Shown: piece after piece, positions 1 to 41,647 of the stretch | Layout of the letters: each line of letters starts with the position of its first letter | How positions within the stretch are numbered: the stretch's first letter is position 1 | Notes under the pieces: model-generated | What the model was told of the DNA's origin: nothing | What the model saw: the letters and a program-made list of their open reading frames with translations, nothing else | Databases searched by the model: none | Program-made: the position numbers and the translations under genes | Source: a virus | Lineage: Duplodnaviria; Caudoviricetes | Virus record (IMG/VR): IMGVR_UViG_3300020045_010930 | Location: 1-41,647 of that record | Length of the DNA stretch: 41,647 bases | Strand: one strand, 5' to 3'

Positions 1-303
1 GGAGATATAGAAATATCCAAATCTGATTACTCTATACCTGCGGACAACAGATTGAAATTTAAAACACCTACGGTTACAACCACTACATACATACCTGCTA
101 GATCAGTAGCAGGGAATTACATGGTAAACACTACTTCAGAAACAACATACACCGTGTCAACTCTACCCGCTGGAGTTTTGAACGATATGGCTATAGTTAC
201 TGACGCATTATCTCCAACATTTCTGACTCCTGTTGCAGGAGGAGGAGGAGGTGCAGTAGTTTGTACAGTTTGGCACAACGGAACAACTTGGGTTTTTAAA
301 TAA
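1..303 (+). CDS. C-terminal end of tail fibre/spike (partial, open from window start)
   Basis: Frame 1 open from base 1; Thr/Gly-rich, ends YTVSTLPAG...VTDALSPTF...VWHNGTTW; same position as 33765-36572 relative to the lysis genes. Confidence 0.6.
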   Translation, partial: GDIEISKSDYSIPADNRLKFKTPTVTTTTYIPARSVAGNYMVNTTSETTYTVSTLPAGVLNDMAIVTDALSPTFLTPVAGGGGGAVVCTVWHNGTTWVFK

Positions 304-310
304 AAGAATT

Positions 311-556
311 TTGAAACACCTAATCATATTATTCAGCACAGTAATTTTTGCTCAAAGCAATACGGTTGCTTCTGGTCACGATAATTATACGGTAGGAAGT
401 CAATTAGTCGAGCTGCAGATTCCTGTAGTAAAAAAAGACCCTGTGCTGTCTGTTCCAAAATATGAAATCCCTATCGAGCCGCCAAAGCCGATAGTTGAGA
501 AGAAGAAAAGTCTTTGGCAGAAACTAGTAATATTAATTAAAAATTTGTTCAAATGA
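311..556 (+). CDS. Small signal-peptide protein, homolog of 36572-36826
   Basis: MKHLIILFSTVIFA|QSN; shares LSVPKYEIPIEPPKPIVEKKKSLWQK with 36572-36826. Confidence 0.7.
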   Translation: MKHLIILFSTVIFAQSNTVASGHDNYTVGSQLVELQIPVVKKDPVLSVPKYEIPIEPPKPIVEKKKSLWQKLVILIKNLFK

Positions 557-819
557 ACTGGATCAAAAACAACATTTTGCCTTTATTGATTTTCGCTGTA
601 GGTTTCGTGGTAAACAACACCGAAATAGTGGTTGATTTCTTAAAAAAAATAGCTGCGCCCGATTGGACTTTTAAAGCCGTAAACACAATAGGTATGCTTT
701 GGGCTGCTTATTTACTTTTCAACTCTAAATCTGCAAAAATCAAAAAAGAGATTGAAGAGGCTTTACAGACAGAGCCTGAAAAGATTGGAGGAGGTGGCAT
801 TAAAAACCCGCCAAACTAA
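553..819 (+). CDS. Putative holin (2 TM)
   Basis: Two hydrophobic segments, charged C-tail, upstream of the endolysin. Confidence 0.5.
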   Translation: MNWIKNNILPLLIFAVGFVVNNTEIVVDFLKKIAAPDWTFKAVNTIGMLWAAYLLFNSKSAKIKKEIEEALQTEPEKIGGGGIKNPPN

Positions 820-821
820 AA

Positions 822-1157
822 ATGAAATTTTTTCTAAAAAAGACAATTTACTTACTTCCTATTTTTCTGATGGGGGTAAGTTTTTTGTCTATTTTTTTTG
901 AATTAAATTTTACTCTTTGGGGAAATATAGGAGGTTTTTCTCTAGTAACTGACGTTTTATTTTTTTATATTTTCTATTACGGAAATTATTGTGCTTTAAC
1001 AAAATCGATACCTATTGCATTGTTTTTTATAAACATATTAAACATTTATGGTTTTTACTTCCCTAAAAATTACAATCCTTGGTATGAAATTGCTGTTTTT
1101 TGTGTAATTTTGACAATAGCAATGATTTACGAACTTAATAGACGAATTTTTAAATGA
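822..1157 (+). CDS. Multi-pass membrane protein of the lysis cassette
   Basis: About four hydrophobic segments in 111 aa. Confidence 0.55.
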   Translation: MKFFLKKTIYLLPIFLMGVSFLSIFFELNFTLWGNIGGFSLVTDVLFFYIFYYGNYCALTKSIPIALFFINILNIYGFYFPKNYNPWYEIAVFCVILTIAMIYELNRRIFK

Positions 1158-1393
1158 ATCCAACACCACAAGAATTTAACTCGGTAATCTCCAACACAGA
1201 TGCCACTACTATAGGAGTTTTGTTAGCCATAGCACTAGCTTTTGGTTGGGTAATTATTTATTTATTTAAGGTAAATCAAGAGTTGCATAAAAAGTTCATT
1301 GAAGAATTAAAAGCCAGTAACGAGGCTTTGATAAAAGTAAACAATTTTCAGAATGATTTTGTGAATAATATGGTCAAACTTGAAAAAAAATAA
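1154..1393 (+). CDS. Single-TM plus coiled-coil protein (holin/antiholin candidate)
   Basis: TIGVLLAIALAFGWVIIYLF then helical charged tail. Confidence 0.5.
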   Translation: MNPTPQEFNSVISNTDATTIGVLLAIALAFGWVIIYLFKVNQELHKKFIEELKASNEALIKVNNFQNDFVNNMVKLEKK

Positions 1394-1478
1394 ACTATGT
1401 GTTTGCCAAAATCAGATATTGAACTAATTAAACAGCACAGGAAAATTATAAATTCGTTGCTAAAAACATTGATAAAAA

Positions 1479-2018
1479 ATGATAACTCAAAAAGACTTCG
1501 AAAACCTATCTACTGAATTCGGTATCGAAATACCAATGGTAAAAGCTTTGGATTTGGTCGAAAGTAATAGCCAAGGGTTTGATACGAAAACTGGTAAAAT
1601 AAAAATACAGTTTGAGCCACATTGGTTTAAGAAATTATCGAAGTCGATTTCAGGACTTTGGTCTGTAAATAAAGTTGATGTTCAGTCAAAAGAATGGGAA
1701 GCGTTTAATGATGCTTTTGACAAAAACCCAACGGTAGCAATGATGTCAACTTCTATCGGAAGAATGCAGGTTATGGGGTTTCATTATGCTAGACTAGGTT
1801 TTAAAACCGTTGGAGAAATGTGGGATTTTGCAAAAAAATCTGAACGTAATCAATTGTGGTTAGGTTTGAAGTTTATGACAACAGACCCCGCTCTTTACAA
1901 GGATATTCGAAACAAGTATTTCAAAGGAATAGCATACAGGTACAATGGCGTGAATTATTGGATTAAAGGCTATCACATTAAAATCGAAAAGGCTTATAAT
2001 TTATTCAAAAAACAATGA
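1479..2018 (+). CDS. Endolysin, N-acetylmuramidase (DUF3380-like)
   Basis: VES..GF, IQFEPHWF, STSIGRMQVMGFHY..LGF, AYRYNG.NY motifs. Confidence 0.85.
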   Translation: MITQKDFENLSTEFGIEIPMVKALDLVESNSQGFDTKTGKIKIQFEPHWFKKLSKSISGLWSVNKVDVQSKEWEAFNDAFDKNPTVAMMSTSIGRMQVMGFHYARLGFKTVGEMWDFAKKSERNQLWLGLKFMTTDPALYKDIRNKYFKGIAYRYNGVNYWIKGYHIKIEKAYNLFKKQ

Positions 2019-2467
2019 AAACTTTCATAAAAGAAAATTGGCAATTCCTGATAAGTGTATCATTGGCTTTTATCGTATGCCTTTTGCTTTGCAGTTGCGG
2101 TACTCGATCGACCAGCAAAGAATATCACGAAATAACTTCGAAGAACACATTCAATGATAGCTCTTTCATTTTAACTCAAAATGTTCGCTTAAACGATATA
2201 GGCGAACTTTTTCCGATTGATAACACGAAGCCTTTTTTTGTTGACGGAAAGCGGTACTTTAATGTTTCTATAAAATTCGATAAATCTAAATTCGAAGATT
2301 TAAAATTAGAACAGAAAAATATAGGCACAGTTACTGGTTCATCTGAAATTAAAAGCAATCAAGCCACAGACCGTACAGATAATACGATGCTATGGCTTGG
2401 GATGTTTTTGATAATGATGATTTCAATTATCGCTTATTTGGTATTGAAAAAATGGGGATTTGTTTGA
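2015..2467 (+). CDS. Lipoprotein with C-terminal TM, candidate unimolecular spanin
   Basis: Lipobox-like LLLCSC, C-terminal MLWLGMFLIMMISIIAYLVL, follows the endolysin. Confidence 0.65.
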   Translation: MKTFIKENWQFLISVSLAFIVCLLLCSCGTRSTSKEYHEITSKNTFNDSSFILTQNVRLNDIGELFPIDNTKPFFVDGKRYFNVSIKFDKSKFEDLKLEQKNIGTVTGSSEIKSNQATDRTDNTMLWLGMFLIMMISIIAYLVLKKWGFV

Positions 2468-2515
2468 GTAAATATAGAGAGAAGTTTCGAGTTGTAGGTA
2501 AGTTTAGAGCAACTT

Positions 2516-2536
2516 GCCTGCCGAAGTTACGCAGGC
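2516..2536. terminator. Hairpin between convergent transcription units
   Basis: GCCTGC-N9-GCAGGC. Confidence 0.4.
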
Positions 2537-2820
2537 TATTTTATTACCTTTAAACTATCTAATTTTATAGATTCTATTTTATCTTCCATAGAAAAATTAA
2601 AACCTGACGGCTTGTAATTATTTATGTTTTTAAGAAAAATATTTACGCTGTCTTTTGAATAAAAAACACGTTCTTTCTTTTCTTTAACCGTTTGTGCGTG
2701 ATAAACAGCACAAGAAATCATTGATCTGTTTTGTGTTCCAAATTCAGATATTCTATTTGCATCTGGGCAAGGAGCTGATTGTATAGAAACAACAATCCAA
2801 CTGATAATATATTTATACAT
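2536..2820 (-). CDS. Hypothetical cassette protein
   Basis: Start MYKYIISW at 2820 in AT-rich context; the track's extension reads through the repeat element. Confidence 0.6.
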   Translation of the reverse strand: MYKYIISWIVVSIQSAPCPDANRISEFGTQNRSMISCAVYHAQTVKEKKERVFYSKDSVNIFLKNINNYKPSGFNFSMEDKIESIKLDSLKVIK

Positions 2821-2835
2821 AATTCGTGATTTAAA

Positions 2836-2936
2836 AAACCCACCTACAGCAATATATTGTAGCAAGTAAGGCTTTGGTTATTATTGTGATCTTTAAATTG
2901 CCATTTTACGGTAAAATTTACTTGCACAATCATATT
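2836..2936. repeat. Degenerate attC-like element 1
   Basis: ACCTACAGC core, then arms AATATATTGTAGCAAGTAA (2851-2869) / TTACTTGCACAATCATATT (2918-2936) pairing with two single-base bulges; no GTT core on the right. Confidence 0.5.
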
Positions 2937-3010
2937 TTAAAATATTGATTAATAGTTATTTAAGATATGGCGTTATAGCGGTTAGCATGTAGTTAGTATC
3001 AAGACTATGT

Positions 3011-3091
3011 TTACTTTTCAAAGTAATCTTTCCTTATTTTTATAATGCAAATTATTAGCAAAAAGATATAGAATAAACCTACAACATTCAT
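3011..3091 (-). CDS. 26-aa hydrophobic peptide in a mini-cassette
   Basis: MNVVGLFYIFLLIICIIKIRKDYFEK*, preceded by AAAATAAAATT; not in the ORF track. Confidence 0.45.
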   Translation of the reverse strand: MNVVGLFYIFLLIICIIKIRKDYFEK

Positions 3092-3135
3092 AATTTTATT
3101 TTTTATAATTAACATTTGTTTTTTTAATCCGTACA

Positions 3136-3222
3136 GCTACTAACAGCAGTCTTGAACTACCGCCAAAATCTCGTAACCGCATAGGTGGCAGTACAAGGCT
3201 ACAAAACGTTAGTGACAACCGC
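3136..3222. repeat. attC-like element 2
   Basis: GCTACTAAC, arms 3146-3164 / 3184-3202 (14/19 Watson-Crick), AAAAC, GTTAGTG at 3208. Confidence 0.7.
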
Positions 3223-3568
3223 CCACAATCATCGTAAAATGTTCACGACAAACATAAGCTGTTAAGTTATGGCGCATTCTGTCGGGGTCGTCCGATGGAA
3301 TTTCTTCTCCTAATTTATTGGTTGCATCTTTTCCGCAAACTGAACAAATCTCTCCTTTACAACTTCCAGAAATAAAATAAGGTGCAAATAATTCTAATGC
3401 TTTTGGTCTTTTGAAAGTATCAAATCCAATAGTTTTTATTTGTACATTTTGAGGGAAATAAGTATAATAACTTCTTTGAGGTATCCATCCATATTCGTCC
3501 ATAAGTCCGTTGGCTATGTCAAAATAATTTCCAAAAACTTCTTGTAATATTTCTTTAGGTGGTAACAT
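3209..3568 (-). CDS. Hypothetical cassette protein with C-terminal CxxC...CxxH
   Basis: Start MLPPKE at 3568; stop TAA lies inside the GTTAG core of element 2. Confidence 0.6.
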   Translation of the reverse strand: MLPPKEILQEVFGNYFDIANGLMDEYGWIPQRSYYTYFPQNVQIKTIGFDTFKRPKALELFAPYFISGSCKGEICSVCGKDATNKLGEEIPSDDPDRMRHNLTAYVCREHFTMIVGGCH

Positions 3569-3600
3569 ATAAATAGTTTTTAAATTAATAATAAGTGGTA

Positions 3601-3702
3601 TGCTGATAACATATGATAAGAGCAATTTGCAGACGTTTAGTCCTTCGATTCAGCTTTTGTAGTAGCAAACTGCTCCTATCATCAGCCGTTAGCAGATATA
3701 GC
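3601..3702. repeat. attC-like element 3
   Basis: GATAAC, arms ATGATAAGAGCAATTTGC (3613-3630) / GCAAACTGCTCCTATCAT (3665-3682) 16/18, CAGCC, GTTAGCAG at 3688. Confidence 0.75.
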
Positions 3703-3715
3703 TACAAAATCGTTC

Positions 3716-4240
3716 CTAAACGAAATTAATATCCGCTTCGACTTCTTCATAGATATATTCTAATTCCAATTGGCTTAATAAATCATCCATTTTCATTTTT
3801 GAATTACCGCCAGTCACATAATTATCGTAATTGTTTTGTCTATGAAACTCAAATAATTTACTCTTATTTACATCCAAAACAGCCTGTGCTTTTCTTTCTA
3901 AAAAAGAACCTTTCTCGTAAAAACTGCTATCTAAAATAATATCTTTCAAAACTTCAATAGTTCTTGAAGTAGGTTTAAAACTGCTATCAAAAGAAACATC
4001 GTTTATTACAGTTCCGTTGTCTATTCCATTTTCCATTACAATATACATTTCTCCTTGCATTAATTCGGAAGTGACTGTAAAGTAATGTGTATATTGCAAT
4101 TGATTGTGTTTTTCTATTGATTCATCAATATAACAGTGAAATTTTTTGTTTACTTTATCCCATTTAGAATCTCCTTTTTCTACAATTTCATTTAGTAAAT
4201 CTTCGTAGTATTTTGATTCTTGAAATTTTTCTATATTCAT
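3716..4240 (-). CDS. Hypothetical acidic cassette protein
   Basis: Start MNIEKF at 4240; flanked by 15-bp inverted cassette ends. Confidence 0.7.
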   Translation of the reverse strand: MNIEKFQESKYYEDLLNEIVEKGDSKWDKVNKKFHCYIDESIEKHNQLQYTHYFTVTSELMQGEMYIVMENGIDNGTVINDVSFDSSFKPTSRTIEVLKDIILDSSFYEKGSFLERKAQAVLDVNKSKLFEFHRQNNYDNYVTGGNSKMKMDDLLSQLELEYIYEEVEADINFV

Positions 4241-4261
4241 CACGTTTAGTTTTAAAAACCC

Positions 4262-4409
4262 GCTACATCTGCTAACAGCTAGTAAGCAATAGTCGTGCAA
4301 TAGGCTTGATTTATAAATTTGTTTGTATTTGTTGTGTTTTTGCTAGACCGAAAGTTTAGGTATATTTAGCACGACCATCGCCTACTAGCGGAACGTTAGT
4401 GACAACCGC
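4262..4409. repeat. attC-like element 4
   Basis: ATCTGCTAAC, arms 4278-4298 / 4369-4389 18/21, GGAAC, GTTAGTG at 4395; 4392-4409 identical to 3205-3222. Confidence 0.75.
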
Positions 4410-4438
4410 TAGTGTAAAAATAAATATTAGCCACATAA

Positions 4439-4708
4439 TTACTCGGTTATTTTCGTTAGTAGTTGCCTGATTTCTAAATCTGTATCGCTTACAAAAACAT
4501 TATTGAATGCTATTTTTTTCAACATTTCAAACATTTCTGGAGCTGCTACGATTAGTTTTGCGTTGGCTTGCATTTCTGTTTTTGTCACGCTTGAAAGATC
4601 ATATCCCCATATATCGCATATCGCTTTACTATAAGATACATTTACACAACATCTTGTTTCTCTAATTTCTAATTCCCACTTCCCTTTCGTTCCTTTAAAA
4701 TCTTTCAT
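4439..4708 (-). CDS. Hypothetical phage protein (FKGTKGKW...ANAKLIVAAPEM type)
   Basis: Motif common in small phage early proteins. Confidence 0.7.
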   Translation of the reverse strand: MKDFKGTKGKWELEIRETRCCVNVSYSKAICDIWGYDLSSVTKTEMQANAKLIVAAPEMFEMLKKIAFNNVFVSDTDLEIRQLLTKITE

Positions 4709-4709
4709 A

Positions 4710-4874
4710 TCAATTATTCTTAACAATTAACGGTTCAACAACTTCAATATCATTGACATCTTGCATTGCGACTATATGAAATGCACTAATCATTCTATTG
4801 TTGTCGTGCAAAAACTGATTATTCATTGCTTTCATCCAAAGATAAAATCGTTCTACGTTTGAGATTTGTTTCAT
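4710..4874 (-). CDS. Hypothetical protein, homolog of 39707-39871
   Basis: MKQISNVERFYLWMK...; 54 aa, not in the track, conserved in the second copy. Confidence 0.7.
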   Translation of the reverse strand: MKQISNVERFYLWMKAMNNQFLHDNNRMISAFHIVAMQDVNDIEVVEPLIVKNN

Positions 4875-5083
4875 TTTGATTTAAGGTATTCGTGAGTAGT
4901 TATTTTTGAAACTAAAGTAAGCCTAGATTTTAAAGAAACTAGACGGTGCTTGAATTCTCCGACAACTGCCGAATTATTCAATACCCAAGACACTTTGTCT
5001 TGTTCTTTTTTGAATTCTTTTAATCTTTTGATATTGTCTTGCAACAAAATCAGCTCCATTTCAAGCAGTTCTAATTCTTTCAT
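4871..5083 (-). CDS. Hypothetical coiled-coil protein
   Basis: ORF track; 4-bp overlap with the next gene. Confidence 0.6.
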   Translation of the reverse strand: MKELELLEMELILLQDNIKRLKEFKKEQDKVSWVLNNSAVVGEFKHRLVSLKSRLTLVSKITTHEYLKSK

Positions 5084-5085
5084 AA

Positions 5086-5271
5086 TTAATCGTTTTTGAA
5101 TGTTTCGTTGTAGTATGTTTCAGAGCTTGAATACACAGGATATATAACATTTCCTTCGTCCCAAGCATCAATAATCTGCTGTTTTTCTTTTTCGAGATAT
5201 TCTTCCATTCCAAAAAGCTCTAACCCGTCTTTCTTTAAAACCTCTATCAATTCTTGCATTGCTGTTTTCAT
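5086..5271 (-). CDS. Hypothetical phage protein (KTAMQEL...EKEKQQIIDAW type)
   Basis: ORF track; N-terminus shared with 39868-40062. Confidence 0.7.
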   Translation of the reverse strand: MKTAMQELIEVLKKDGLELFGMEEYLEKEKQQIIDAWDEGNVIYPVYSSSETYYNETFKND

Positions 5272-5465
5272 AACGTTTCTTTATAGATTTCTAAAAGTTG
5301 TTTTGTGGTTTTTCCATTGACTTCTCGAAGAGTTCTTTCTCCGTACCAATTCAAAAAACCAATAGCGAAGTTTTCTGCTATTTCTGCACATTTTTTAGAA
5401 GCATCAGGATCGTCTACAAACTCTGAAAACTGCATTTCGTTAAAATATTGCTGTTCTAATTTCAT
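5268..5465 (-). CDS. Hypothetical protein, homolog of 40059-40244
   Basis: AENFAIGF...LLEIYKETL in both copies. Confidence 0.7.
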   Translation of the reverse strand: MKLEQQYFNEMQFSEFVDDPDASKKCAEIAENFAIGFLNWYGERTLREVNGKTTKQLLEIYKETL

Positions 5466-5650
5466 TTCGATTGAGTTTTAAATTGTTTTAAATAATTATC
5501 GATTTCGCTTTGCTGAATACGTTTTGTAAATCCAAAAACAACCGTTTTTATTTGCTTTTTGTCAATCAACTTGTATAATGTAGGTCTGCTAATACCTATC
5601 ATTTCGGCAGCCTTTTGCAAAGATACGCCCCTGTCTATTTCTTTTTCCAT
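5462..5650 (-). CDS. Excisionase-like HTH DNA-binding protein (HTH_17 type)
   Basis: SLQKAAEMIGISRPTLYKLI...IKTV..G..KRI...EI. Confidence 0.8.
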   Translation of the reverse strand: MEKEIDRGVSLQKAAEMIGISRPTLYKLIDKKQIKTVVFGFTKRIQQSEIDNYLKQFKTQSK

Positions 5651-5673
5651 TTGATTTGGTTTTAAATTCTTTA

Positions 5674-5704
5674 CAAAGATATACAACTTTTTTACATTTA
5701 CAAA
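5674..5704 (-). promoter_or_regulatory. Leftward Bacteroidota-type promoter
   Basis: TTTG-N19-TATCTTTG on the minus strand. Confidence 0.75.
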
Positions 5705-5715
5705 TTTTTACACTT

Positions 5716-5734
5716 ATTTAAAATTAATATAAAT
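5716..5734. promoter_or_regulatory. Palindromic ATTTA-N9-TAAAT box
   Basis: 34 nt from each divergent -7 element. Confidence 0.55.
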
Positions 5735-5745
5735 AGTTTACAAAA

Positions 5746-5776
5746 TTTGCATATCCAAAAAACATCATTATCTTTG
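5746..5776 (+). promoter_or_regulatory. Rightward Bacteroidota-type promoter
   Basis: TTTG-N19-TATCTTTG; -7 region conserved at 40562. Confidence 0.75.
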
Positions 5777-5800
5777 TCGAAACAAAAAATAATAGAAATT

Positions 5801-6052
5801 ATGATGCTAGGCAATTTATCTGTTAAACAGATTGAAGAAAGGTTAGGAATTGAGTTTCCTGAAAATATCAGAGAGTTTATGAAAAATACTCATAATCCAA
5901 ACGCAAGTAATATTTCAATAGGTAAATGGCATTGTTTCGATTTGCCATTTCATATCGTTTGCGGAGATTTGGAAACAGCTACTAAAATTTACGAATCAGT
6001 AAAAGATAGGTCAAAAGAATGTAAAGAAGCTTTACGATTTTCAATAAAATAA
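5801..6052 (+). CDS. Hypothetical protein, N-terminus SMI1/KNR4-like
   Basis: QIEERLGIEFPENIREFM; ATG at 5801 downstream of the promoter. Confidence 0.55.
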   Translation: MMLGNLSVKQIEERLGIEFPENIREFMKNTHNPNASNISIGKWHCFDLPFHIVCGDLETATKIYESVKDRSKECKEALRFSIK

Positions 6053-6060
6053 TAGAAATT

Positions 6061-6294
6061 ATGGAAGAAAATAGAAAACCGAGTAATCCTGACTTATATA
6101 AAGGCGCTGTTGGTATGATTGAAGACAGAGTTACGTTAAGAGATTATTTCGCAAATAATGCGATGCAGTCTGTAATTAGAAAGTATAATGGTACCAAATC
6201 GGACAGCTATAATCTTGATTCAGAAGACGCGGAAGCTATTGCAGATTATAGCTACGAAATCGCCGATGCAATGCTAAAACAACGTGAATTATGA
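6061..6294 (+). CDS. Conserved phage protein (TLRDYFA...Y.IADAML type)
   Basis: Recognisable widespread phage motif. Confidence 0.75.
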   Translation: MEENRKPSNPDLYKGAVGMIEDRVTLRDYFANNAMQSVIRKYNGTKSDSYNLDSEDAEAIADYSYEIADAMLKQREL

Positions 6295-6533
6295 GCCTAG
6301 ACACCCACGACTACCACAACCCAGATGCTCCTTGGAATCAAATAGAAGTTGAAGCAGAAATTGAAACAGGTTATAAAGACATGACAGAAGCATACGAAAG
6401 CGGAGACGAAGATGTTTTTAAAGAAAAACAAAATGAGTGCCTAGATATGGCGCAAGAAATTTACGATGTTCTAAAATCGCTTGACAGTGGTTTGGTTCGT
6501 AAAATGCAAAAATTAATAGATAACTTAAAATAA
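6291..6533 (+). CDS. Hypothetical acidic protein, homolog of 40594-40830
   Basis: YHNPDAPWNQIEVEAEIETGYK in both copies. Confidence 0.75.
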   Translation: MSLDTHDYHNPDAPWNQIEVEAEIETGYKDMTEAYESGDEDVFKEKQNECLDMAQEIYDVLKSLDSGLVRKMQKLIDNLK

Positions 6534-6540
6534 AATAATT

Positions 6541-7059
6541 ATGGATTTGTCAAAAACAATTATCCCAAAATCAGACCAATTAAATGCAGATGATTTAATA
6601 TCAGGATCAAAAACTATCAAAATTCGTGAAGTAAAAGCTGGAGCAGACGAAACGCAACCAGTAGCTATTTATTTCTATGGCGACAACAACAAGCCTTTTA
6701 AACCTTGCAAGTCTATGCGTAGGGTTTTAGTTCAGTTATGGGGGGCAGATGGGTTGCAATATATAGGGCACAGATTGACAATATATCGTGAAAATAGTGT
6801 AAAGTGGTCAGGGGTTGAAGTGGGTGGGATTAGAATTAGCCACGCTTCACATATTGCAGAGCCAACACGTGTTCTTGTTACGATATCAAGAAATAAACGT
6901 GTACCTATTACTATTGATATTTTACCATTGGTAGAATTAAAAGATTTGGCAGGCGCAAGAACAGCTATCAAAGATAAAAAAGCAACTCTTTCTGCTATTT
7001 TAGAAAAGTACGACTTGACGGCTGAACAATTAAAAACTTTGCAAGATGAAACAGTCTGA
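6541..7059 (+). CDS. Conserved phage protein, putative ssDNA-annealing/recombination factor
   Basis: SDQLNADDL, KPCKSMRRVL, VGGIRISH; beside exonuclease and SSB; replaced by a Sak-like gene in copy 2. Confidence 0.55.
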   Translation: MDLSKTIIPKSDQLNADDLISGSKTIKIREVKAGADETQPVAIYFYGDNNKPFKPCKSMRRVLVQLWGADGLQYIGHRLTIYRENSVKWSGVEVGGIRISHASHIAEPTRVLVTISRNKRVPITIDILPLVELKDLAGARTAIKDKKATLSAILEKYDLTAEQLKTLQDETV

Positions 7060-7186
7060 CCAAATAGGATGCGGATATTGTGATAAAGAAAAAACGTGTA
7101 AAATCCGTGACCCTAAAATCAACAAAGCAAAACTAGACTGTAAAGAATTTAAACATTATTCAAAAGATGGAAATAAAAAAATTTAA
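7046..7186 (+). CDS. Small four-Cys protein
   Basis: MKQSDQIGCGYCDKEKTCKIRDPKINKAKLDCKEF..., 46 aa, fills the intergenic gap. Confidence 0.5.
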   Translation: MKQSDQIGCGYCDKEKTCKIRDPKINKAKLDCKEFKHYSKDGNKKI

Positions 7187-8018
7187 ATGCAGAGCGTCAA
7201 AGATTGGTATCTTAATGACTAATCATTCTGGAAAATCGTATAAAGAACAGTATGATGATGCCTTGTCGAAAAAAGAATCTTTAAACATCAGGCTGTCTGA
7301 ATTCAAAAACAAAGAATGTAAAACAGCTTTGCAAATTGTTAACGAAAAATTACCAGAAACGGATAAAGAAATCGAAAGATTAAAGCCTTTGATTGACGAA
7401 GTAATATTAAGCGAAAGCACAAAATCATACTGCAAAGAATGGCTTATTTCTGAAATCACAGGAAAACAAAAAGACATTCGATCAAAATATCTTTCACGTG
7501 GAAAAGCAATGGAAGAAGCCGCGATTAAACGAATTGCTAAACATTACGGCTGTGAACTGGTAAAAAACGAAATTCAGTTAGAAAATGAATATTTCACAGG
7601 AATGTTTGATACAAAAAATACCGATACGGTTATTGATGCTAAAGTTCCATTTGATTGCTTTACTTTTCCTTTTTTTGTATCAATAATTGACCCTGATTAC
7701 TACGGACAACTACAAGGATATATGAACTTGACAGGGTTAAAAAAAGGTAGTCTTTGCTATTGTTTAGAAAATGGTAGCGAAGAACAAATAGACAAATTAT
7801 ATTGGCAAATAGCCAAAGATTTAGGAAAAGATGAGCCAGATATTGAAGAGTGGGATTTAGCAGAAAATCAATTAAACTACGATAATTTGTCGGATGAATT
7901 ACGTATAAAAACTTTTGAGTTTGGATATGATGAAGATTATATTAATAGGGCTGAACAAATGGTTTTAGCTTGTAGAAAGTACATTAAAGAAGAATTATTA
8001 ACACAAATTAAATTTTAA
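7167..8018 (+). CDS. YqaJ/lambda-exonuclease-like nuclease
   Basis: RASKIG, RG..ME, FTG..D....DAK, YYGQLQGYM.LTG. Confidence 0.75.
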   Translation: MEIKKFKCRASKIGILMTNHSGKSYKEQYDDALSKKESLNIRLSEFKNKECKTALQIVNEKLPETDKEIERLKPLIDEVILSESTKSYCKEWLISEITGKQKDIRSKYLSRGKAMEEAAIKRIAKHYGCELVKNEIQLENEYFTGMFDTKNTDTVIDAKVPFDCFTFPFFVSIIDPDYYGQLQGYMNLTGLKKGSLCYCLENGSEEQIDKLYWQIAKDLGKDEPDIEEWDLAENQLNYDNLSDELRIKTFEFGYDEDYINRAEQMVLACRKYIKEELLTQIKF

Positions 8019-36572: not shown

Positions 36573-36826
36573 TGAAAATTATAATCATACTTCTTTTCTG
36601 CTTTTCAATCCAAGCACAGGAAAGCATAGTAGCAAGCGGGACTGATACATACACAATAGGCGAAATGTTTCCAATAATGCAACAGGATATGAAACAAAAA
36701 GAAGTTTCTCTTTCAGTACCGAAATATGAAATCCCTATCGAACCGCCAAAGCCGATAGTTGAGAAGAAGAAAAGTCTTTGGCAGAAAATAATTGAAGCGT
36801 TTAAAAAAGTGTTTAAAATCGTTTAA
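36572..36826 (+). CDS. Small signal-peptide protein, homolog of 311-556
   Basis: MKIIIILLFCFSIQA|QES; shared C-terminal block. Confidence 0.7.
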   Translation: MKIIIILLFCFSIQAQESIVASGTDTYTIGEMFPIMQQDMKQKEVSLSVPKYEIPIEPPKPIVEKKKSLWQKIIEAFKKVFKIV

Positions 36827-36855
36827 AAAGTATTTAAATTTAAAACTATATTAAT

Positions 36856-37077
36856 ATGAAAACAAGATGGATTACGTGGCTTATTACCATAGGCGCAGGA
36901 ATTGATCAGATTTACGGTGTAATTGCCGAAAACGCTGGTCTTTTAGTAGAAATTGGAGTATCTCCAAAAGTAACAAAAATTATTTTAGTTGTAGGTATAA
37001 TTTGGAATGCTTTTTCAAAAAGCTTAACTCCAAAAGAGATTCAAAGCATTGGATTGCCGAAACCGCCAAAGCCTTAA
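36856..37077 (+). CDS. Putative holin
   Basis: Two hydrophobic segments; position equivalent to 553-819. Confidence 0.5.
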   Translation: MKTRWITWLITIGAGIDQIYGVIAENAGLLVEIGVSPKVTKIILVVGIIWNAFSKSLTPKEIQSIGLPKPPKP

Positions 37078-37081
37078 TTAA

Positions 37082-37417
37082 ATGAGAAAAATACACAAAA
37101 TAATGCTTATAATGCCAGTTATTATAGTTTGGTATTGGTTGTTTTGTGTATTATTTTTTGTTAAAACTGTATTTTATGCAAATAATTTTGAAGTACTTGA
37201 TACAATAGACACTTTTTTAGTTGGATTGTGCGGTACTCACTTTATATTTTTTTATTTCATTTATAATAGAATTTCAAAAATATATCTATCCTGCATTTAT
37301 TCTATTGTAATATTAAATTTTTTGTATATTTACCTTACAAATGAAATTTATTATTTCTTTTACTACTCAATAATCATAACCTACATATTATTACCACTTT
37401 GGAAGAAGAAAAATTAA
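37082..37417 (+). CDS. Multi-pass membrane protein of the lysis cassette
   Basis: About four TM, 111 aa like 822-1157. Confidence 0.55.
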   Translation: MRKIHKIMLIMPVIIVWYWLFCVLFFVKTVFYANNFEVLDTIDTFLVGLCGTHFIFFYFIYNRISKIYLSCIYSIVILNFLYIYLTNEIYYFFYYSIIITYILLPLWKKKN

Positions 37418-37704
37418 AAGAGGATTTCAGAATGCAAAAGATGGAAGAACATCTTAAGCGTATGAAAGATTCTGTAGAAGCAACTAATGAGTCTATAAGT
37501 AAAATATCTAATGCCCTAGTAGGGAATGAATATACAGGAGGTATCGGAATGGTTCATACTTTGCAAAAATTAAAAACAGAAGTTGAAAAAAATCAAGATG
37601 AAATTGCTATATTAAAAGACAATATGGGACTTATAAAATGGTTTGCCTCTGGACTAGGCGGTTTGGTAATTGCAATAATAATTTATTTACTTGGTAAAAT
37701 ATGA
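37399..37704 (+). CDS. Coiled-coil protein with C-terminal TM
   Basis: Helical, ends WFASGLGGLVIAIIIYLLGKI. Confidence 0.6.
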   Translation: MEEEKLKEDFRMQKMEEHLKRMKDSVEATNESISKISNALVGNEYTGGIGMVHTLQKLKTEVEKNQDEIAILKDNMGLIKWFASGLGGLVIAIIIYLLGKI

Positions 37705-38243
37705 ATCTTCAAAAAAAATACAAGTCACTTTTTGAAAAATACGGACTTACCACAAAGTTACGAATTGCACATTTTATGGCGCAAATTGAACACGAAAGCG
37801 GATTGAAGCCAATCAGTGAGAATCTTAATTATAGTGCGGTTAGGTTGTTAAAAGTATTTCCTAAATATTTCAAGAATAGCAAAGAGGCAAGTGTTTTTTC
37901 AAATAATCCTATTATGATAGCCAATAGAGTTTACGCTAATCGTGGAGGTAACGGAAATGAAGCGAGTGGGGATGGTTGGAGATATAGAGGAAGAGGTTTT
38001 TTACAAATAACACTAAAAGAAAACTATTTTAGACTTGCCAACGATACCGATTTAGATTGTTTAAAAAATCCTGATTTGTTACTTGAAGAAGCAAACGCTA
38101 TGATTTCTGCTTTATGGTTTTGGAATTTAAAAGGACTTAATAAATTGGCAGATAAAAACGATATTATTGGAATTACCAGGAAAATAAACGGTGGTTTGAA
38201 TGGAATTGATCATAGAAAAGAATTGCTAAAAAAGTACCTATGA
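37701..38243 (+). CDS. Endolysin, glycoside hydrolase family 19
   Basis: AHFMAQI.HES, ENLNYS, GDGWRYRGRG.LQIT, T.KINGG.NG. Confidence 0.9.
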   Translation: MNLQKKYKSLFEKYGLTTKLRIAHFMAQIEHESGLKPISENLNYSAVRLLKVFPKYFKNSKEASVFSNNPIMIANRVYANRGGNGNEASGDGWRYRGRGFLQITLKENYFRLANDTDLDCLKNPDLLLEEANAMISALWFWNLKGLNKLADKNDIIGITRKINGGLNGIDHRKELLKKYL

Positions 38244-38314
38244 CCCGCCAAACCATCATTGAATCAATAATTTGGATTGTCGCAATTTCTGCGATTTTGT
38301 ACCTATATTTATAA
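38240..38314 (+). CDS. 24-aa hydrophobic peptide
   Basis: MTRQTIIESIIWIVAISAILYLYL*, ATGA overlap with the endolysin stop. Confidence 0.35.
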   Translation: MTRQTIIESIIWIVAISAILYLYL

Positions 38315-38364
38315 AGTGCCCCACCGCATTCGCTACAGTGCTGCACTATAAAAAACTTAAAACA

Positions 38365-38817
38365 ATGAAAACTTTCATAAAAGAAAATTGGCAATTCCTG
38401 ATAAGTGTATCATTGGCTTTTATCGTATGCCTTTTGCTTTGCGGTTGCGGAGGAACTCGATCCACTAGCAAAGAATATCACGAAATAACTTCGAAGAACA
38501 CATTCAATGATAGCTCATTCATTTTAACTCAAAATGTTCGCTTAAACGATATAGGCGAACTTGTTCCAATCGATAACACGAAGCCGTTTTTTGTTGATGG
38601 AAAAGAATACTTTAATGTTTCTATTAAATTCGATAAATCTAAATTCGAAGATTTAAAATTAGAACAGAAAAATATAGGCACAGTTACTAGTTCATCTGAA
38701 ATTAAAAGCGATCAAACCACAGACCGTACAGATAATACGATGCTATGGCTTGGGATGTTTTTGATATTCGTTGTAGCTGTTTTTGCTTGGTTTTATTTGC
38801 CAAGATTGAAAATATAA
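38365..38817 (+). CDS. Lipoprotein with C-terminal TM, candidate unimolecular spanin (copy 2)
   Basis: Near-identical to 2015-2467 except the C-terminal TM. Confidence 0.65.
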   Translation: MKTFIKENWQFLISVSLAFIVCLLLCGCGGTRSTSKEYHEITSKNTFNDSSFILTQNVRLNDIGELVPIDNTKPFFVDGKEYFNVSIKFDKSKFEDLKLEQKNIGTVTSSSEIKSDQTTDRTDNTMLWLGMFLIFVVAVFAWFYLPRLKI

Positions 38818-38823
38818 TCTAAT

Positions 38824-39018
38824 TTATTCAGTTTCAAGGAATTTAATAACTTTTGTTTTTCCTGTTAATTTAGAGTGTTCTAATTCTAATTGTGCCGACT
38901 TCAACATAGCATTCGATGTAGCTACAAGTGTTTTTCCTTGCCCCACCTCTATAGTGCCGTCTTTTACTCCCACAAACACTTTTACCAGTTCGTCTCTTAA
39001 TTCTTTTGCGTTTTTCAT
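38824..39018 (-). CDS. Hypothetical protein
   Basis: ORF track. Confidence 0.65.
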   Translation of the reverse strand: MKNAKELRDELVKVFVGVKDGTIEVGQGKTLVATSNAMLKSAQLELEHSKLTGKTKVIKFLETE

Positions 39019-39512
39019 TTTGTTAATTTTTTTAGTGATATTAAATATTTATTTACTTCTATTAAATAAGGATATTTTGCAACATCACTTACTTTTAAAT
39101 TTGATTTGGTTTTAATTAGATTGCTTCTTATGTATTGTAAGATATTACGAGTTGTTAATCCTAATTCTAATTGCTGATTGTACTCGCATTCTTTACATTG
39201 GTAATTTAATTTGTCTGGAAAAACAGAAAAGCTATTGAATTCTATTTTTTGCTTTTTATTGTTGCACAAAATACACGTTTTTAAATCGGTTTTACCCTCC
39301 CTAATATGTCTACGTTTTCTTTCTTTTTCTCGTTGTTCAGGTTTTCTGCAATACTCATTATGATAACCTGACTCCTTATTTTTTTGTCTTTGTCTTTTTT
39401 GCATAGAACGACCACTTTCAGATTCACAATACAATTTCTTTTTTAAACGTATTTCTTCTTTTTTACGTTCTCGATACTTTTTATCGTATTCTGCTTTTTG
39501 TTGCTTATCCAT
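39015..39512 (-). CDS. Basic protein with CxxC...CxxC zinc ribbon
   Basis: KTCILC...F........QCKEC; no HNH motif seen. Confidence 0.6.
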   Translation of the reverse strand: MDKQQKAEYDKKYRERKKEEIRLKKKLYCESESGRSMQKRQRQKNKESGYHNEYCRKPEQREKERKRRHIREGKTDLKTCILCNNKKQKIEFNSFSVFPDKLNYQCKECEYNQQLELGLTTRNILQYIRSNLIKTKSNLKVSDVAKYPYLIEVNKYLISLKKLTK

Positions 39513-39524
39513 ACTTTAAAAAGA

Positions 39525-39710
39525 TTATTTCAACAAGCCGTCCTGCACTTCCAACAATTCCCGAAGTTCAATATTTTCTTTTGAAATTGCGTTGTGTTCG
39601 TTGTTTAATCGATCGATTGTTTTTTGCTTTTCATCTATAATGTAAATCAAACAATACATAAAAGCGCACAGTACTAATGTTGTAAAAATGAGTATTGTTT
39701 CCATAGTCAA
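39525..39710 (-). CDS. Single-TM coiled-coil protein
   Basis: N-terminal hydrophobic stretch. Confidence 0.55.
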   Translation of the reverse strand: MTMETILIFTTLVLCAFMYCLIYIIDEKQKTIDRLNNEHNAISKENIELRELLEVQDGLLK

Positions 39711-39871
39711 TTAGTTTTTACAATTACAGGATTCACGACTTCAATATCATTCACATCTTGCATTGCAACTATATGAAATGCACTGATCATTCTATTATTG
39801 TCGTGTAAAAATTTGTTATTAATCGATTTCATCCAAAGATAAAATCTTTCTACGTTTGATTGTTTTTTCAT
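39707..39871 (-). CDS. Hypothetical protein, homolog of 4710-4874
   Basis: MKKQSNVERFYLWMK. Confidence 0.7.
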   Translation of the reverse strand: MKKQSNVERFYLWMKSINNKFLHDNNRMISAFHIVAMQDVNDIEVVNPVIVKTN

Positions 39872-40062
39872 GATTTTTCTTCTAAAAGTTTGACAATAAA
39901 ATAACCAACAATACATATATGAGCCGCAATGTAGAATGCGTTTTCACAAACTTGAATAGCATCAAGTAACGCCTCTTCTGCCGTGTATTTTATTTTGCTA
40001 CTTATTTGAAGTCTCAATTGTTGTTCGAAATATTCTTTAAGTTCTTGAACTACTGTTTTCAT
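39868..40062 (-). CDS. Hypothetical protein
   Basis: ORF track. Confidence 0.55.
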   Translation of the reverse strand: MKTVVQELKEYFEQQLRLQISSKIKYTAEEALLDAIQVCENAFYIAAHICIVGYFIVKLLEEKS

Positions 40063-40244
40063 AACGTTTCTTTATAGATTTCTAAAAGCTCTATTGTAGT
40101 TTTGCCTCCAAGCTCTCTTCTTCCGTTATTTCTACACCAATCTATAAACCCAATAGCGAAGTTTTCTGCTACTTCTACATATTCCTTGATGTATTCCGAA
40201 TTTGTGAACGGAAACTTTTCTTTTATTTGTTCTTCTAATTTCAT
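40059..40244 (-). CDS. Hypothetical protein, homolog of 5268-5465
   Basis: Shared motifs with copy 1. Confidence 0.7.
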   Translation of the reverse strand: MKLEEQIKEKFPFTNSEYIKEYVEVAENFAIGFIDWCRNNGRRELGGKTTIELLEIYKETL

Positions 40245-40257
40245 TTCCCTTGGTTTT

Positions 40258-40440
40258 TTAGTCGTTTTTCTCTTTCAACTTGGTTAATACTAATTTTTGG
40301 TGCTTTTCTGGACAATCCCAAAAGCCACCGAACCAATGGTTATAAATACTTCTTGCGCCTGTTCCTGTTTCTTTGCTGATTTCCTCACAAAAAGCTTTTT
40401 TGTCTTTTAACTTTTTGTACAATATTTTTATTTCTTCCAT
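40258..40440 (-). CDS. Putative HTH regulator (replaces 5462-5650)
   Basis: KKAFCEEISKETGTGARSIYNHWF; first gene after the leftward promoter. Confidence 0.55.
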   Translation of the reverse strand: MEEIKILYKKLKDKKAFCEEISKETGTGARSIYNHWFGGFWDCPEKHQKLVLTKLKEKND

Positions 40441-40462
40441 TTTTATAGTTTTAAATTCGATA

Positions 40463-40569
40463 CAAACATACAACATATTGTTTAATATTTAACCACCACC
40501 ACCACAATTTATACCCGTTCTAAATTGCTGTGGTGGTGGTTATTTATCCAAAAAACATCATTATCTTTG
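40463..40569. promoter_or_regulatory. Divergent promoters with central 22-bp inverted repeat
   Basis: TATGTTTG (minus, 40463-40470), TATCTTTG (plus, 40562-40569); arms 40490-40511 / 40521-40542 match 20/22. Confidence 0.75.
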
Positions 40570-40593
40570 TCGAAACAAAAAAAAATAGAAATT

Positions 40594-40830
40594 ATGGATA
40601 CCCAATACTACCACAACCCAGACGCTCCTTGGAATCAAATCGAAGTTGAAGCCGAAATTGAAACAGGTTATAAAAACTTAACCGAAGCTTACGAAAGTGA
40701 TTTCGAACAAGTTTTTAAAGAAAAACAAAGCGAGTGCCTAGATATGGCACAAGAAATTTACTATGTTCTAAAATCACTTGACAGTGGTTTGGTCGGTAAA
40801 ATGCAAAAATTAATAGATAACTTAAAATAG
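40594..40830 (+). CDS. Hypothetical acidic protein, homolog of 6291-6533
   Basis: Start MDTQYYHNPDA. Confidence 0.75.
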   Translation: MDTQYYHNPDAPWNQIEVEAEIETGYKNLTEAYESDFEQVFKEKQSECLDMAQEIYYVLKSLDSGLVGKMQKLIDNLK

Positions 40831-40837
40831 AGTAATT

Positions 40838-41452
40838 ATGAGCGAAAATCTAAAACTTTGGAATGCAGTTGAAAAAACAAATCCAAAGTACACTAAACAA
40901 GCAAATGTTGGAGGCAATAAAATAACCTCTATTGCTCCACAATATCAGATAATGAATGTTACCGAACAATTCGGAAGTTATGGTAAAACTTGGGGGTTTA
41001 GAAATATTGAATTGGATTATACGTTAGTAACAGAATTCAATTTGATTGTTTTTAAAGCTACTTTCTTTTATCCAGGTGGAGAGTTTCCAACAATCAATTC
41101 AATAAAGATGTTTATGGATAATGCCAAACTTAAAATAGATGATAATTTCGCAAAGAAATTAGAAACTGATACTTTGACAAAGGCAATATCAAAACTTGGC
41201 TTTAATGCCGATATTTTTATGGGTAAATTTGACGATGTGAAATATCTTGCCGAAGTCACGAAGGAATTTGCATCTAATGAACCAAAAGAGGTTCCAACAA
41301 TGAACAACGCTCAACACAAGAAACTAATTGACACTGCAACCGCTGAAAGATTGGAAGAGGTTTTAAATGCAATTGAAGAGGGAAAACTAGATGCAAATCC
41401 AGGACAAGTATTGACTTTAGAAGAAAAATTAATTGAATTAAAAACCGTGTAA
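40838..41452 (+). CDS. Rad52/Sak-like ssDNA-annealing protein
   Basis: TEQFG.YG..WG, AKK..TD.LTKA.S.LGF.ADIF.G. Confidence 0.7.
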   Translation: MSENLKLWNAVEKTNPKYTKQANVGGNKITSIAPQYQIMNVTEQFGSYGKTWGFRNIELDYTLVTEFNLIVFKATFFYPGGEFPTINSIKMFMDNAKLKIDDNFAKKLETDTLTKAISKLGFNADIFMGKFDDVKYLAEVTKEFASNEPKEVPTMNNAQHKKLIDTATAERLEEVLNAIEEGKLDANPGQVLTLEEKLIELKTV

Positions 41453-41454
41453 TT

Positions 41455-41647
41455 ATGGGAGCAACAAGAGAAAAAAGAGAAGAAATCCTTTGGGATGAAC
41501 ACCAAGAACAATCTGAAATAATTCCTTTGGAATTTACAGAAGAAATCAAGCCTGAAACATTCGGGATTGAAGTTTCAAAAGCAACCGAAATGGTATCGGG
41601 CTTATCGACTACATTAGCCGAAAGAGAAGTTTTGAAAAACGCATACA
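41455..41647 (+). CDS. Hypothetical protein (partial)
   Basis: MGATREKREE..., open to the window end. Confidence 0.5.
   Translation, partial: MGATREKREEILWDEHQEQSEIIPLEFTEEIKPETFGIEVSKATEMVSGLSTTLAEREVLKNAY

Follow-up and report, generated by a model that had tools for sequence, protein, structure and literature searches.

The window, by which we mean the whole stretch of DNA analysed (41,647 nucleotides), is the record of a tailed phage that carries terminase, portal, tape measure and muramidase genes, together with an excisionase-like HTH gene. At one locus of this phage, four small reverse-strand ORFs are set apart by three intact sites and one broken site. The original prediction described this arrangement as an integron-like gene-cassette array, and the coordinates and sequences that it gave were all found in place. 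A scored scan for YAAC, a spacer and an arm, followed by the second arm, a spacer and GTTR, recovered exactly three intact sites in the whole 41,647 bases, all of them on the + strand and all in the array. The features of the locus and of two other positions in the record are listed below; a slash within a core marks the crossover position.

2491..2850: body of cassette A, with left end GTTGTAGGTAAG at 2491 and right end at 2839-2850
2536-2865, - strand: ORF of cassette A, 109 aa from TTG or 94 aa from the ATG at 2820, no family match
2839..2936, + strand: site 1, broken, with AGC in place of AAC and 55 nt between the arm and the next GTT
2974..2995, + strand: likely entry (attI-like) site, TATAGCGGTTAGCATGTA/GTTA(G), resembling the unfolded first core of the recombinase-less arrays L001 and L002
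2992..3207: cassette B, ends 8/9 complementary, with a 34-codon ORF at 3011-3115 on the - strand
3133..3219 (scan 3141-3211), + strand: site 2, TAAC at 3141, GTT at 3208, spacers 1/5, arm 19
3205..3222 and 4392..4409, + strand: 18-bp direct repeat AACGTTAGTGACAACCGC, whose two copies bracket cassettes 2 and 3
3208..3687: cassette 2, ORF 3209-3568 on the - strand, 119 aa with a Cys/His-rich C-terminus; left end not cognate
3599..3699 (scan 3607-3691), + strand: site 3, TAAC at 3607, GTT at 3688, spacers 2/5, 18-bp arm with 2 A.C mismatches and no G.T
3688..4394: cassette 3, ORF 3716-4240 on the - strand, 174 aa
4265..4406 (scan 4273-4398), + strand: site 4, TAAC at 4273, GTT at 4395, spacers 1/5, 21-bp arm with 3 A.C mismatches and no G.T
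5704-5674, - strand: promoter match TTTG-N19-TATCTTTG, at the head of the leftward early operon, which continues into the array
38818..39706: the same locus in a second, diverged copy, with other genes and no sites

The fixed geometry that had been predicted holds for the three intact sites (spacers 1-2/5, arms of 18-21 bp), and the 1-2/5 geometry gave no hit in 15 Markov-simulated windows. The 18-mer is repeated exactly at 3205 and 4392 and the five arm mismatches of sites 3 and 4 are all A.C on the top strand, both as described before. The claim that one strand folds better stands for sites 2-4, where the bottom/top fold energies calculated with DNA parameters are -10.0/-8.4, -14.5/-11.9 and -16.9/-11.3 kcal/mol, respectively, but not for site 1, where the bottom strand is not the better folder. 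Moreover, the element at 2836-2936, previously called degenerate, is indeed off the pattern but is more than degenerate, since it lacks AAC and a normally spaced GTT. The cassette ends are complementary at 3688/4262 (14/15), 2491/2836 (12/15) and 2992/3136 (8/9), as had been proposed; cassette 2, which the prediction did not list, reaches only 5/15 (3208 versus 3599-3613). In site 2 the conserved T at +7 after AAC is replaced by C. The broken site 1, the missing T of site 2 and the non-cognate left end of cassette 2 all count against the reading that we favour below. In relatives, the left end of cassette 2 is GTTATCAG; in the window the 18-bp repeat has replaced it, for which target duplication, conversion and microhomology deletion are candidate causes. 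The stop codon of the cassette 2 ORF falls inside the GTTA core.

The ends of cassette A also occur in L001, and one contig tracks the lipoprotein gene up to 2491 and diverges from there. The best reading is that cassette A is a separate insertion at 2491, now stranded. The right part of site 1 (2890-2935) is present in other contigs with unrelated flanks, and a gene whose start may form this right half was absent among the loci examined. No copy of the attI motif that is linked to the recombinase in other loci (see later in the text) lies at the window array, which also counts against our reading; to judge from its sequence, the variant core at 2974-2995 is likely to be the entry site. The window array is thus a short, partly decayed orphan row of single-gene cassettes.

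The window cassette proteins gave no Pfam, PHROG or PADLOC match. The cassette 3 protein has 128 homologues, with no Pfam domain on any of the 120 listed; the ESM Atlas returned no usable hit for it, and for cassette 2 only unnamed clusters at 0.90. Both cassettes recur in other loci, cassette 2 in L010 (93%) and cassette 3 in L006 (84%) and L009 (100% over the 121 nt compared, then diverging at the core), each time with different neighbours and with the homology borders at cores. The cassette 3 gene is also found in L008, without sites, and the end family of cassette B in L001 and L010. Near-identical copies of cassette 2 were present in contigs from all four sequencing runs examined; in one run its borders lie at 3216 and 3691, and the loose end at 3216 bears the self-complementary GTTATCAG left end. 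Neither an excised circle nor a skipped-cassette joint was seen for the window cassettes in these four runs, whose shares are small (0.05-0.17), and this too is counted against our reading.

Six blocks, 77-98% alike, are shared by the two ends of the record, so that the second copy is best described as a diverged allele; the record may be either a tandem phage or a mixed assembly. Both ends (positions 1-6550 and 36690-41647) cover the lysis and early region, as alleles that have diverged and that encode different endolysins. The scored scan agrees with the earlier statement that 38818-39706 is free of sites. At the same locus, the relative L003 has no sites, and the relatives L001 and L002 hold other cassettes. 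The promoter match at 5704-5674, which we take to be of the Bacteroidota type, is one of five on the - strand and lies upstream of a run of - strand ORFs that continues into the array. No terminator-like site was detected on the - strand in 2300-6000, and a sigma-70 scan was at chance level (16 versus 20.6 +/- 4.3). The array is probably transcribed from 5674. A 48-bp inverted repeat at 5673-5777 extends across the divergent promoter region that separates the leftward from the rightward early genes.

As had been predicted, the phage record holds no integrase: PF00589 had no match at E<=10, which counts against our reading of the array. However, loci L009 and L007 and the record of L010 encode a tyrosine recombinase of 266-271 aa directly after the array. 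Using the alignment of these three proteins as a query, we obtained 63 viral loci. Upstream of these recombinase genes there are 160 sites on the opposite strand and 6 on the same strand, and 1 site lies downstream; 5 of the 6 belong to one locus with a second, opposed array. Simulated sequence contained no site. At least one site occurs in 43 of the 63 loci, which are not all independent, and 11 of the other 20 hold <300 bp upstream. In 39 of the 47 viral loci scored, an unfolded attI-like core, mostly ATATA-N4-A/GTTA, lies 33-104 bp before the recombinase match, and the first cassette starts there. The search for linked IntI-like recombinases, which had been suggested as a check, thus gave a linked tyrosine recombinase but not one of the IntI type, as it lacks the I2 insertion.

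Several further arrangements were seen in these loci. L065:2900-7800 holds two opposed arrays back to back, one of which ends at the recombinase, with genes antisense to the sites in each. An empty 29-bp cassette (GTTGTAAAA...TTTTACAAC) is the first at the attI-like core in L007:6610-6638. In arrays without a neighbouring recombinase, a gene of 59-67 aa with a weak DUF6290 match (E 0.001-0.002) takes the place expected for the recombinase, right behind the entry core (L001:6413-6592, L002:1945-2124, L006:8340-8543). The system also occurs in a Candidatus Nomurabacteria record (L096:5880-8780) and in an Ignavibacteriales record with 3/5 spacers (L099:7800-16300). Ingeline has a similar recombinase, but its single weak site is on the other strand, so that this enzyme is not tied to an array here.

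The sites of the viral loci share an architecture rather than a sequence. In 150 viral cassettes, 5.7 of the 8 positions beyond the core match between the left end of a cassette and the right end of the same cassette, and a single mismatch, at position 11, is fixed. When the partners are shuffled the value falls to 2.6 +/- 0.1 of 8, and none of 1000 shuffles exceeded 2.9. The left arm carries the box motif AAC-N6-T[AT]-N6-A in 190 of 198 viral sites, and the opposite arm has 9-10 nt in 177 of the 198. Top-strand mismatches are A.C in 306 cases, G.T in 82 and other in 130, and the bottom strand is the more stable one in 187/209 sites. The earlier remark that the spacer geometry is non-canonical was well founded: under free geometry, 137/163 sites show a spacer asymmetry of 3-4 nt and 2 are symmetric, whereas Vibrio attC sites, used as a control, score 3/3 and give no hit with the 1-2/5 geometry.

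Cassette ORFs of viruses are antisense to their site in 149/150 cases. Since the phage gene faces against its site and toward the recombinase end, the row is probably transcribed as the last part of a phage early operon. In 43 of 109 phage cassettes the ORF starts inside the site, which can therefore also serve as a region of translation start, and the N-termini of these proteins are encoded by the hairpin arm and the core. Recurrent N-terminal peptides (…LLAVV…, …AVSGS…) were seen in such ORFs, for example in L016, L022 and L023. Among 1084 non-array phage ORFs, 11 of the 109 phage cassette ORFs have a homologue, and none has one among 68 host cassette ORFs; from their sequences, phage cassettes look as if they were built from phage genes. 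Relatives carry C5 and N6/N4 methylases as cassettes. Matches between loci were few, which counts against our reading: 115 metagenomic cassettes gave only 6 matches to other loci, with right borders within 12 nt of G/TT in 2, at 13 and 18 nt in 2 and inside the loop in 2. An all-against-all comparison of 151 cassettes returned isolate pairs only.

The prediction of a host-side tyrosine recombinase is supported by homologues at E<=1e-50 in 68 of 121 Flavobacterium-genus genomes. We examined 18 of 72 host places, chosen for long contigs. Sites lie beside the enzyme in 15 of these 18 regions, downstream on the same strand in 12 (2 to 20 sites in 14 kb) and upstream on the opposite strand in 3; the remaining 3 have none. 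The 1/5 geometry is found in 93/124 host sites. Host cassette ORFs are sense in 75 and antisense in 4 of 79 cases, with 25 lacking a call. The hosts keep XerC and XerD besides the enzyme.

The recombinase measures 263-276 aa in phages and mostly about 345-390 aa in hosts, where it has an N-terminal extension. It contains the domains PF00589 and PF13495, and the catalytic R-K-H-R-H-Y residues are invariant in 10/10 aligned members. Scores for the integron integrase model TIGR02249 (92-148 bits) and for XerA (147-173 bits) are below the respective cut-offs of 265 and 220, and the best NCBIfam, PDB-sequence and fold matches are to XerA. The structural model is moderate (pLDDT 70, pTM 0.50, from 3 sequences) and supports the fold class only. 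The IntI-specific I2 insertion near patch III corresponds to a gap of ~40 columns against IntI1, Shewanella IntI and Vibrio IntIA in 4/4 members aligned. In a 25-row tree with XerC/D the family forms one branch (SH-aLRT 84, not starred), placed beside IntI and apart from XerC/D (98; midpoint root); a tree without the outgroup leaves its monophyly open. Phage recombinases form a branch of their own. At least 2911 clusters match the recombinase at E<=1e-60 among 8000 candidates scored, a count of enzyme matches alone.

Cultured isolates prove that whole cassettes are exchanged at AAC/GTT. Compared with Freya_10, the phages Freya_1, Freya_5 and Freya_9 are without 4942, 3198 and 307 bp, respectively, and in Freya_6 469 other bases replace 3195 of Freya_10. 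All Freya junctions are at AAC, with 3 bp shared, and each one terminates at the core that lies 47 bp ahead of the recombinase gene; Freya_8 has no junction in the stretch compared. The phages mumin6-1 and mumin6-4 differ by one precise 506-bp cassette, although mumin6-1 has no PF00589 match; this junction shares 7 bp, so that microhomology is possible there. Between lillamy9-1 and 9-6 a swap lies between cores, and Danklef_1 and Danklef_5 have the same gene list in the array region. The Danklef recombinase is annotated in pieces (L124:9719-10483, Danklef_5), and the Freya isolates have a whole enzyme and differing arrays. Cassette gain and loss in relatives thus breaks at GTT cores, as the original prediction had anticipated. 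Its central idea, a gene-capture array with crossover at GTT that is tied to a tyrosine recombinase, is borne out by the core-bounded recurrence of cassettes, by the isolate junctions and by the linkage of recombinase and sites.

Given the observed sites, polarity, covariation, breakpoints and recombinase linkage, we consider it likely that the window holds a recombinase-less cassette row of an integron-like system of Bacteroidota and their phages, which probably uses a short Xer-like recombinase and would be served in trans. A cassette runs from G/TT through the gene, TAAC and a hairpin to the next G/TT. The recombinase would cut at the G/TT of a site that is predicted to form by the folding of one DNA strand. 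Upon excision the two ends of the same cassette, whose pairing is evident from covariation, would meet and pair. In the predicted folded site, two Xer-like boxes of 11 bp are separated by 6 nt on one arm and by 9-10 nt on the other, which creates a bulge of 3-4 nt where attC has a symmetric spacer; the outer box spans 12 bp and pairs over 10-12 bp. New cassettes enter at the unfolded attI-like core beside the recombinase gene, as seen in the Freya isolates. The short tyrosine recombinase is very probably the catalyst, and the folded bottom strand is probably its substrate. In the exchange of IntI a single strand is transferred and the product is resolved by replication. The three bases shared at the junctions argue against a second, homology-checked exchange, and a single exchange at G/TT on the folded bottom strand, which replication may then resolve, is the best reading. 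The window row would be served by the enzyme of the host or of a co-infecting phage, and present activity in trans on this array has a somewhat better than even chance. Because phage and host cassette genes do not overlap and phage recombinases branch separately, the action of a host enzyme on phage sites is a step that we infer.

The most serious alternative keeps the same cassettes and enzyme but regards the window array as the dead remnant of a recombinase-bearing ancestor, which changes only by homologous exchange between co-infecting phages. Such decay would fit a record without the enzyme, the broken site 1, the off-consensus site 2, the replaced left end of cassette 2 and the empty locus of the other allele. 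However, sites 3 and 4 have remained intact, over 121 nt cassette 3 shows 100% identity with its counterpart in the enzyme-bearing L009 and diverges at the core, and the recombinase-less mumin isolates show a precise cassette indel, so that we regard a dead array as possible but doubtful.

A different objection concerns the substrate, namely that the enzyme could act on double-stranded or cruciform sites by two ordinary exchanges, as Xer does at dif. The dif site has two 11-bp boxes 6 nt apart, and the boxes described here are spaced in this manner on one arm; moreover, XerA is the best match of the modelled structure. The enzyme also lacks I2, which the parts of PMC8138268 covered describe as the element of IntI that reads the folded attC. 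However, the Freya partners share AAC only (3 bp), too little for a second exchange that needs an identical overlap, the arm sequences vary while their pairing is kept, and one strand is favoured in 187 of 209 sites. Action on double-stranded sites is therefore unlikely, and folded single-strand recombination is preferred.

We think it very improbable that the sites are ordinary attC sites (CALIN) served by a true integron integrase. Canonical attC sites have a near-symmetric unpaired spacer between the R and L boxes, and extrahelical bases. The GTT/AAC cores and the bottom-strand bias would agree with this assignment, and Qi et al. 2023 (PMC9892861), in the parts covered, gave the name CALIN to phage arrays, one of them part of such an array in Polaribacter phage P12002L. 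In our analysis this phage has the same site family (11 + strand calls in two clusters), methylase cassettes and no PF00589 match. P12002L attC1, the sole whole site of the family in the covered parts of PMC9892861, was the one of six sites that IntI1 did not recombine; the 'divergent' attC2 of the same study maps to the left end of the same cassette. The aadA7 attC oligo used there shows the canonical spacer geometry, and the sections of that paper covered do not mention the short recombinase, the attI-like core or the asymmetric geometry. In addition to this asymmetry, TIGR02249 was over its cut-off in none of the 5 host genomes with arrays.

A reading of the elements as RNA hairpins, with a role in termination, processing or translation, amid ordinary phage shuffling, to which the ORFs starting inside sites might appeal, is scarcely credible, since pairing joins ends a whole gene apart, the recombinase linkage is strand-fixed, no terminator-like call falls at the sites, Rfam gave no match at E<=1 in 1-8000 of the record, and the base-precise Freya junctions already refute a hairpin as the sole role. 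The Flavo-1 RNA motif (RF01705), likewise a dispersed hairpin family of Flavobacteria, was rejected, as its alignment rows show another sequence and it has no Rfam match in 1-8000.

The integron-like cassette system preferred here resembles integrons, especially sedentary chromosomal ones, in its single-gene cassettes, G/TT crossover, own-end pairing and bottom-strand folding bias, in the entry of cassettes, in relatives, at an unfolded attI-like core next to the recombinase gene, and in the 16-20 sites within 14 kb of a host chromosome. Unlike integrons, it has a recombinase without I2, spacers of 1-2/5 and an outer box paired over 10-12 bp, an enzyme that precedes the array in the same direction in 12/18 host regions, and phage genes that face against the sites whereas host genes do not. 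In its working the system is thus like an integron, but its enzyme, site geometry and gene polarity place it outside the integrons. With XerC/XerD and archaeal XerA it shares a simple two-domain tyrosine recombinase and two 11-bp boxes 6 nt apart; it differs from Xer-dif systems in scores below the cut-offs, in hosts that retain XerC and XerD, in a separate branch beside IntI and in sequence-diverse sites.

The literature searched contained no description of this system, subscription papers being outside its scope; it included the covered parts of PMC8618304, PMC2864571, PMC9723704, 10.1101/2022.02.06.479319 and 10.1101/2024.07.02.601686. Neither 'cassette' nor 'integron' occurs in the covered passages of PMC7077304 and PMC8776804, the papers on the isolates. 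In an integron-like subgroup, the IntI insertion was reported to be 'not fully conserved' (PMC8138268, in the parts covered), and this subgroup may include the recombinase described here. Surveys of integrons depend on the IntI insertion and on models of attC, which is why the system was missed.

What was missed is a system whose enzyme occurs in more than half of the Flavobacterium-genus genomes searched and whose cassettes are swapped in cultured phages. With it, gene-by-gene variation among flavobacterial phages acquires a site-specific cause, and this extends to the methylase differences linked to plating efficiency in the covered parts of PMC7077304. It also makes testable the question of how sequence-diverse sites are handled by a recombinase that has no I2 helix, and the window array is of value as a substrate for testing action in trans. 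We give even odds to the broader reading, taken as a whole, of a second lineage of integrons. In this reading a sister of IntI, which either never acquired I2 or has lost it, would read a folded dif-like site with a central bulge, form arrays of super-integron size in Bacteroidota chromosomes, and allow phages to build cassettes of reverse polarity out of phage genes (methylases, early genes) and to drop and borrow the enzyme. If true, this second lineage would fill the functional gap between Xer and IntI and would act generally as a source of mosaicism in phages.
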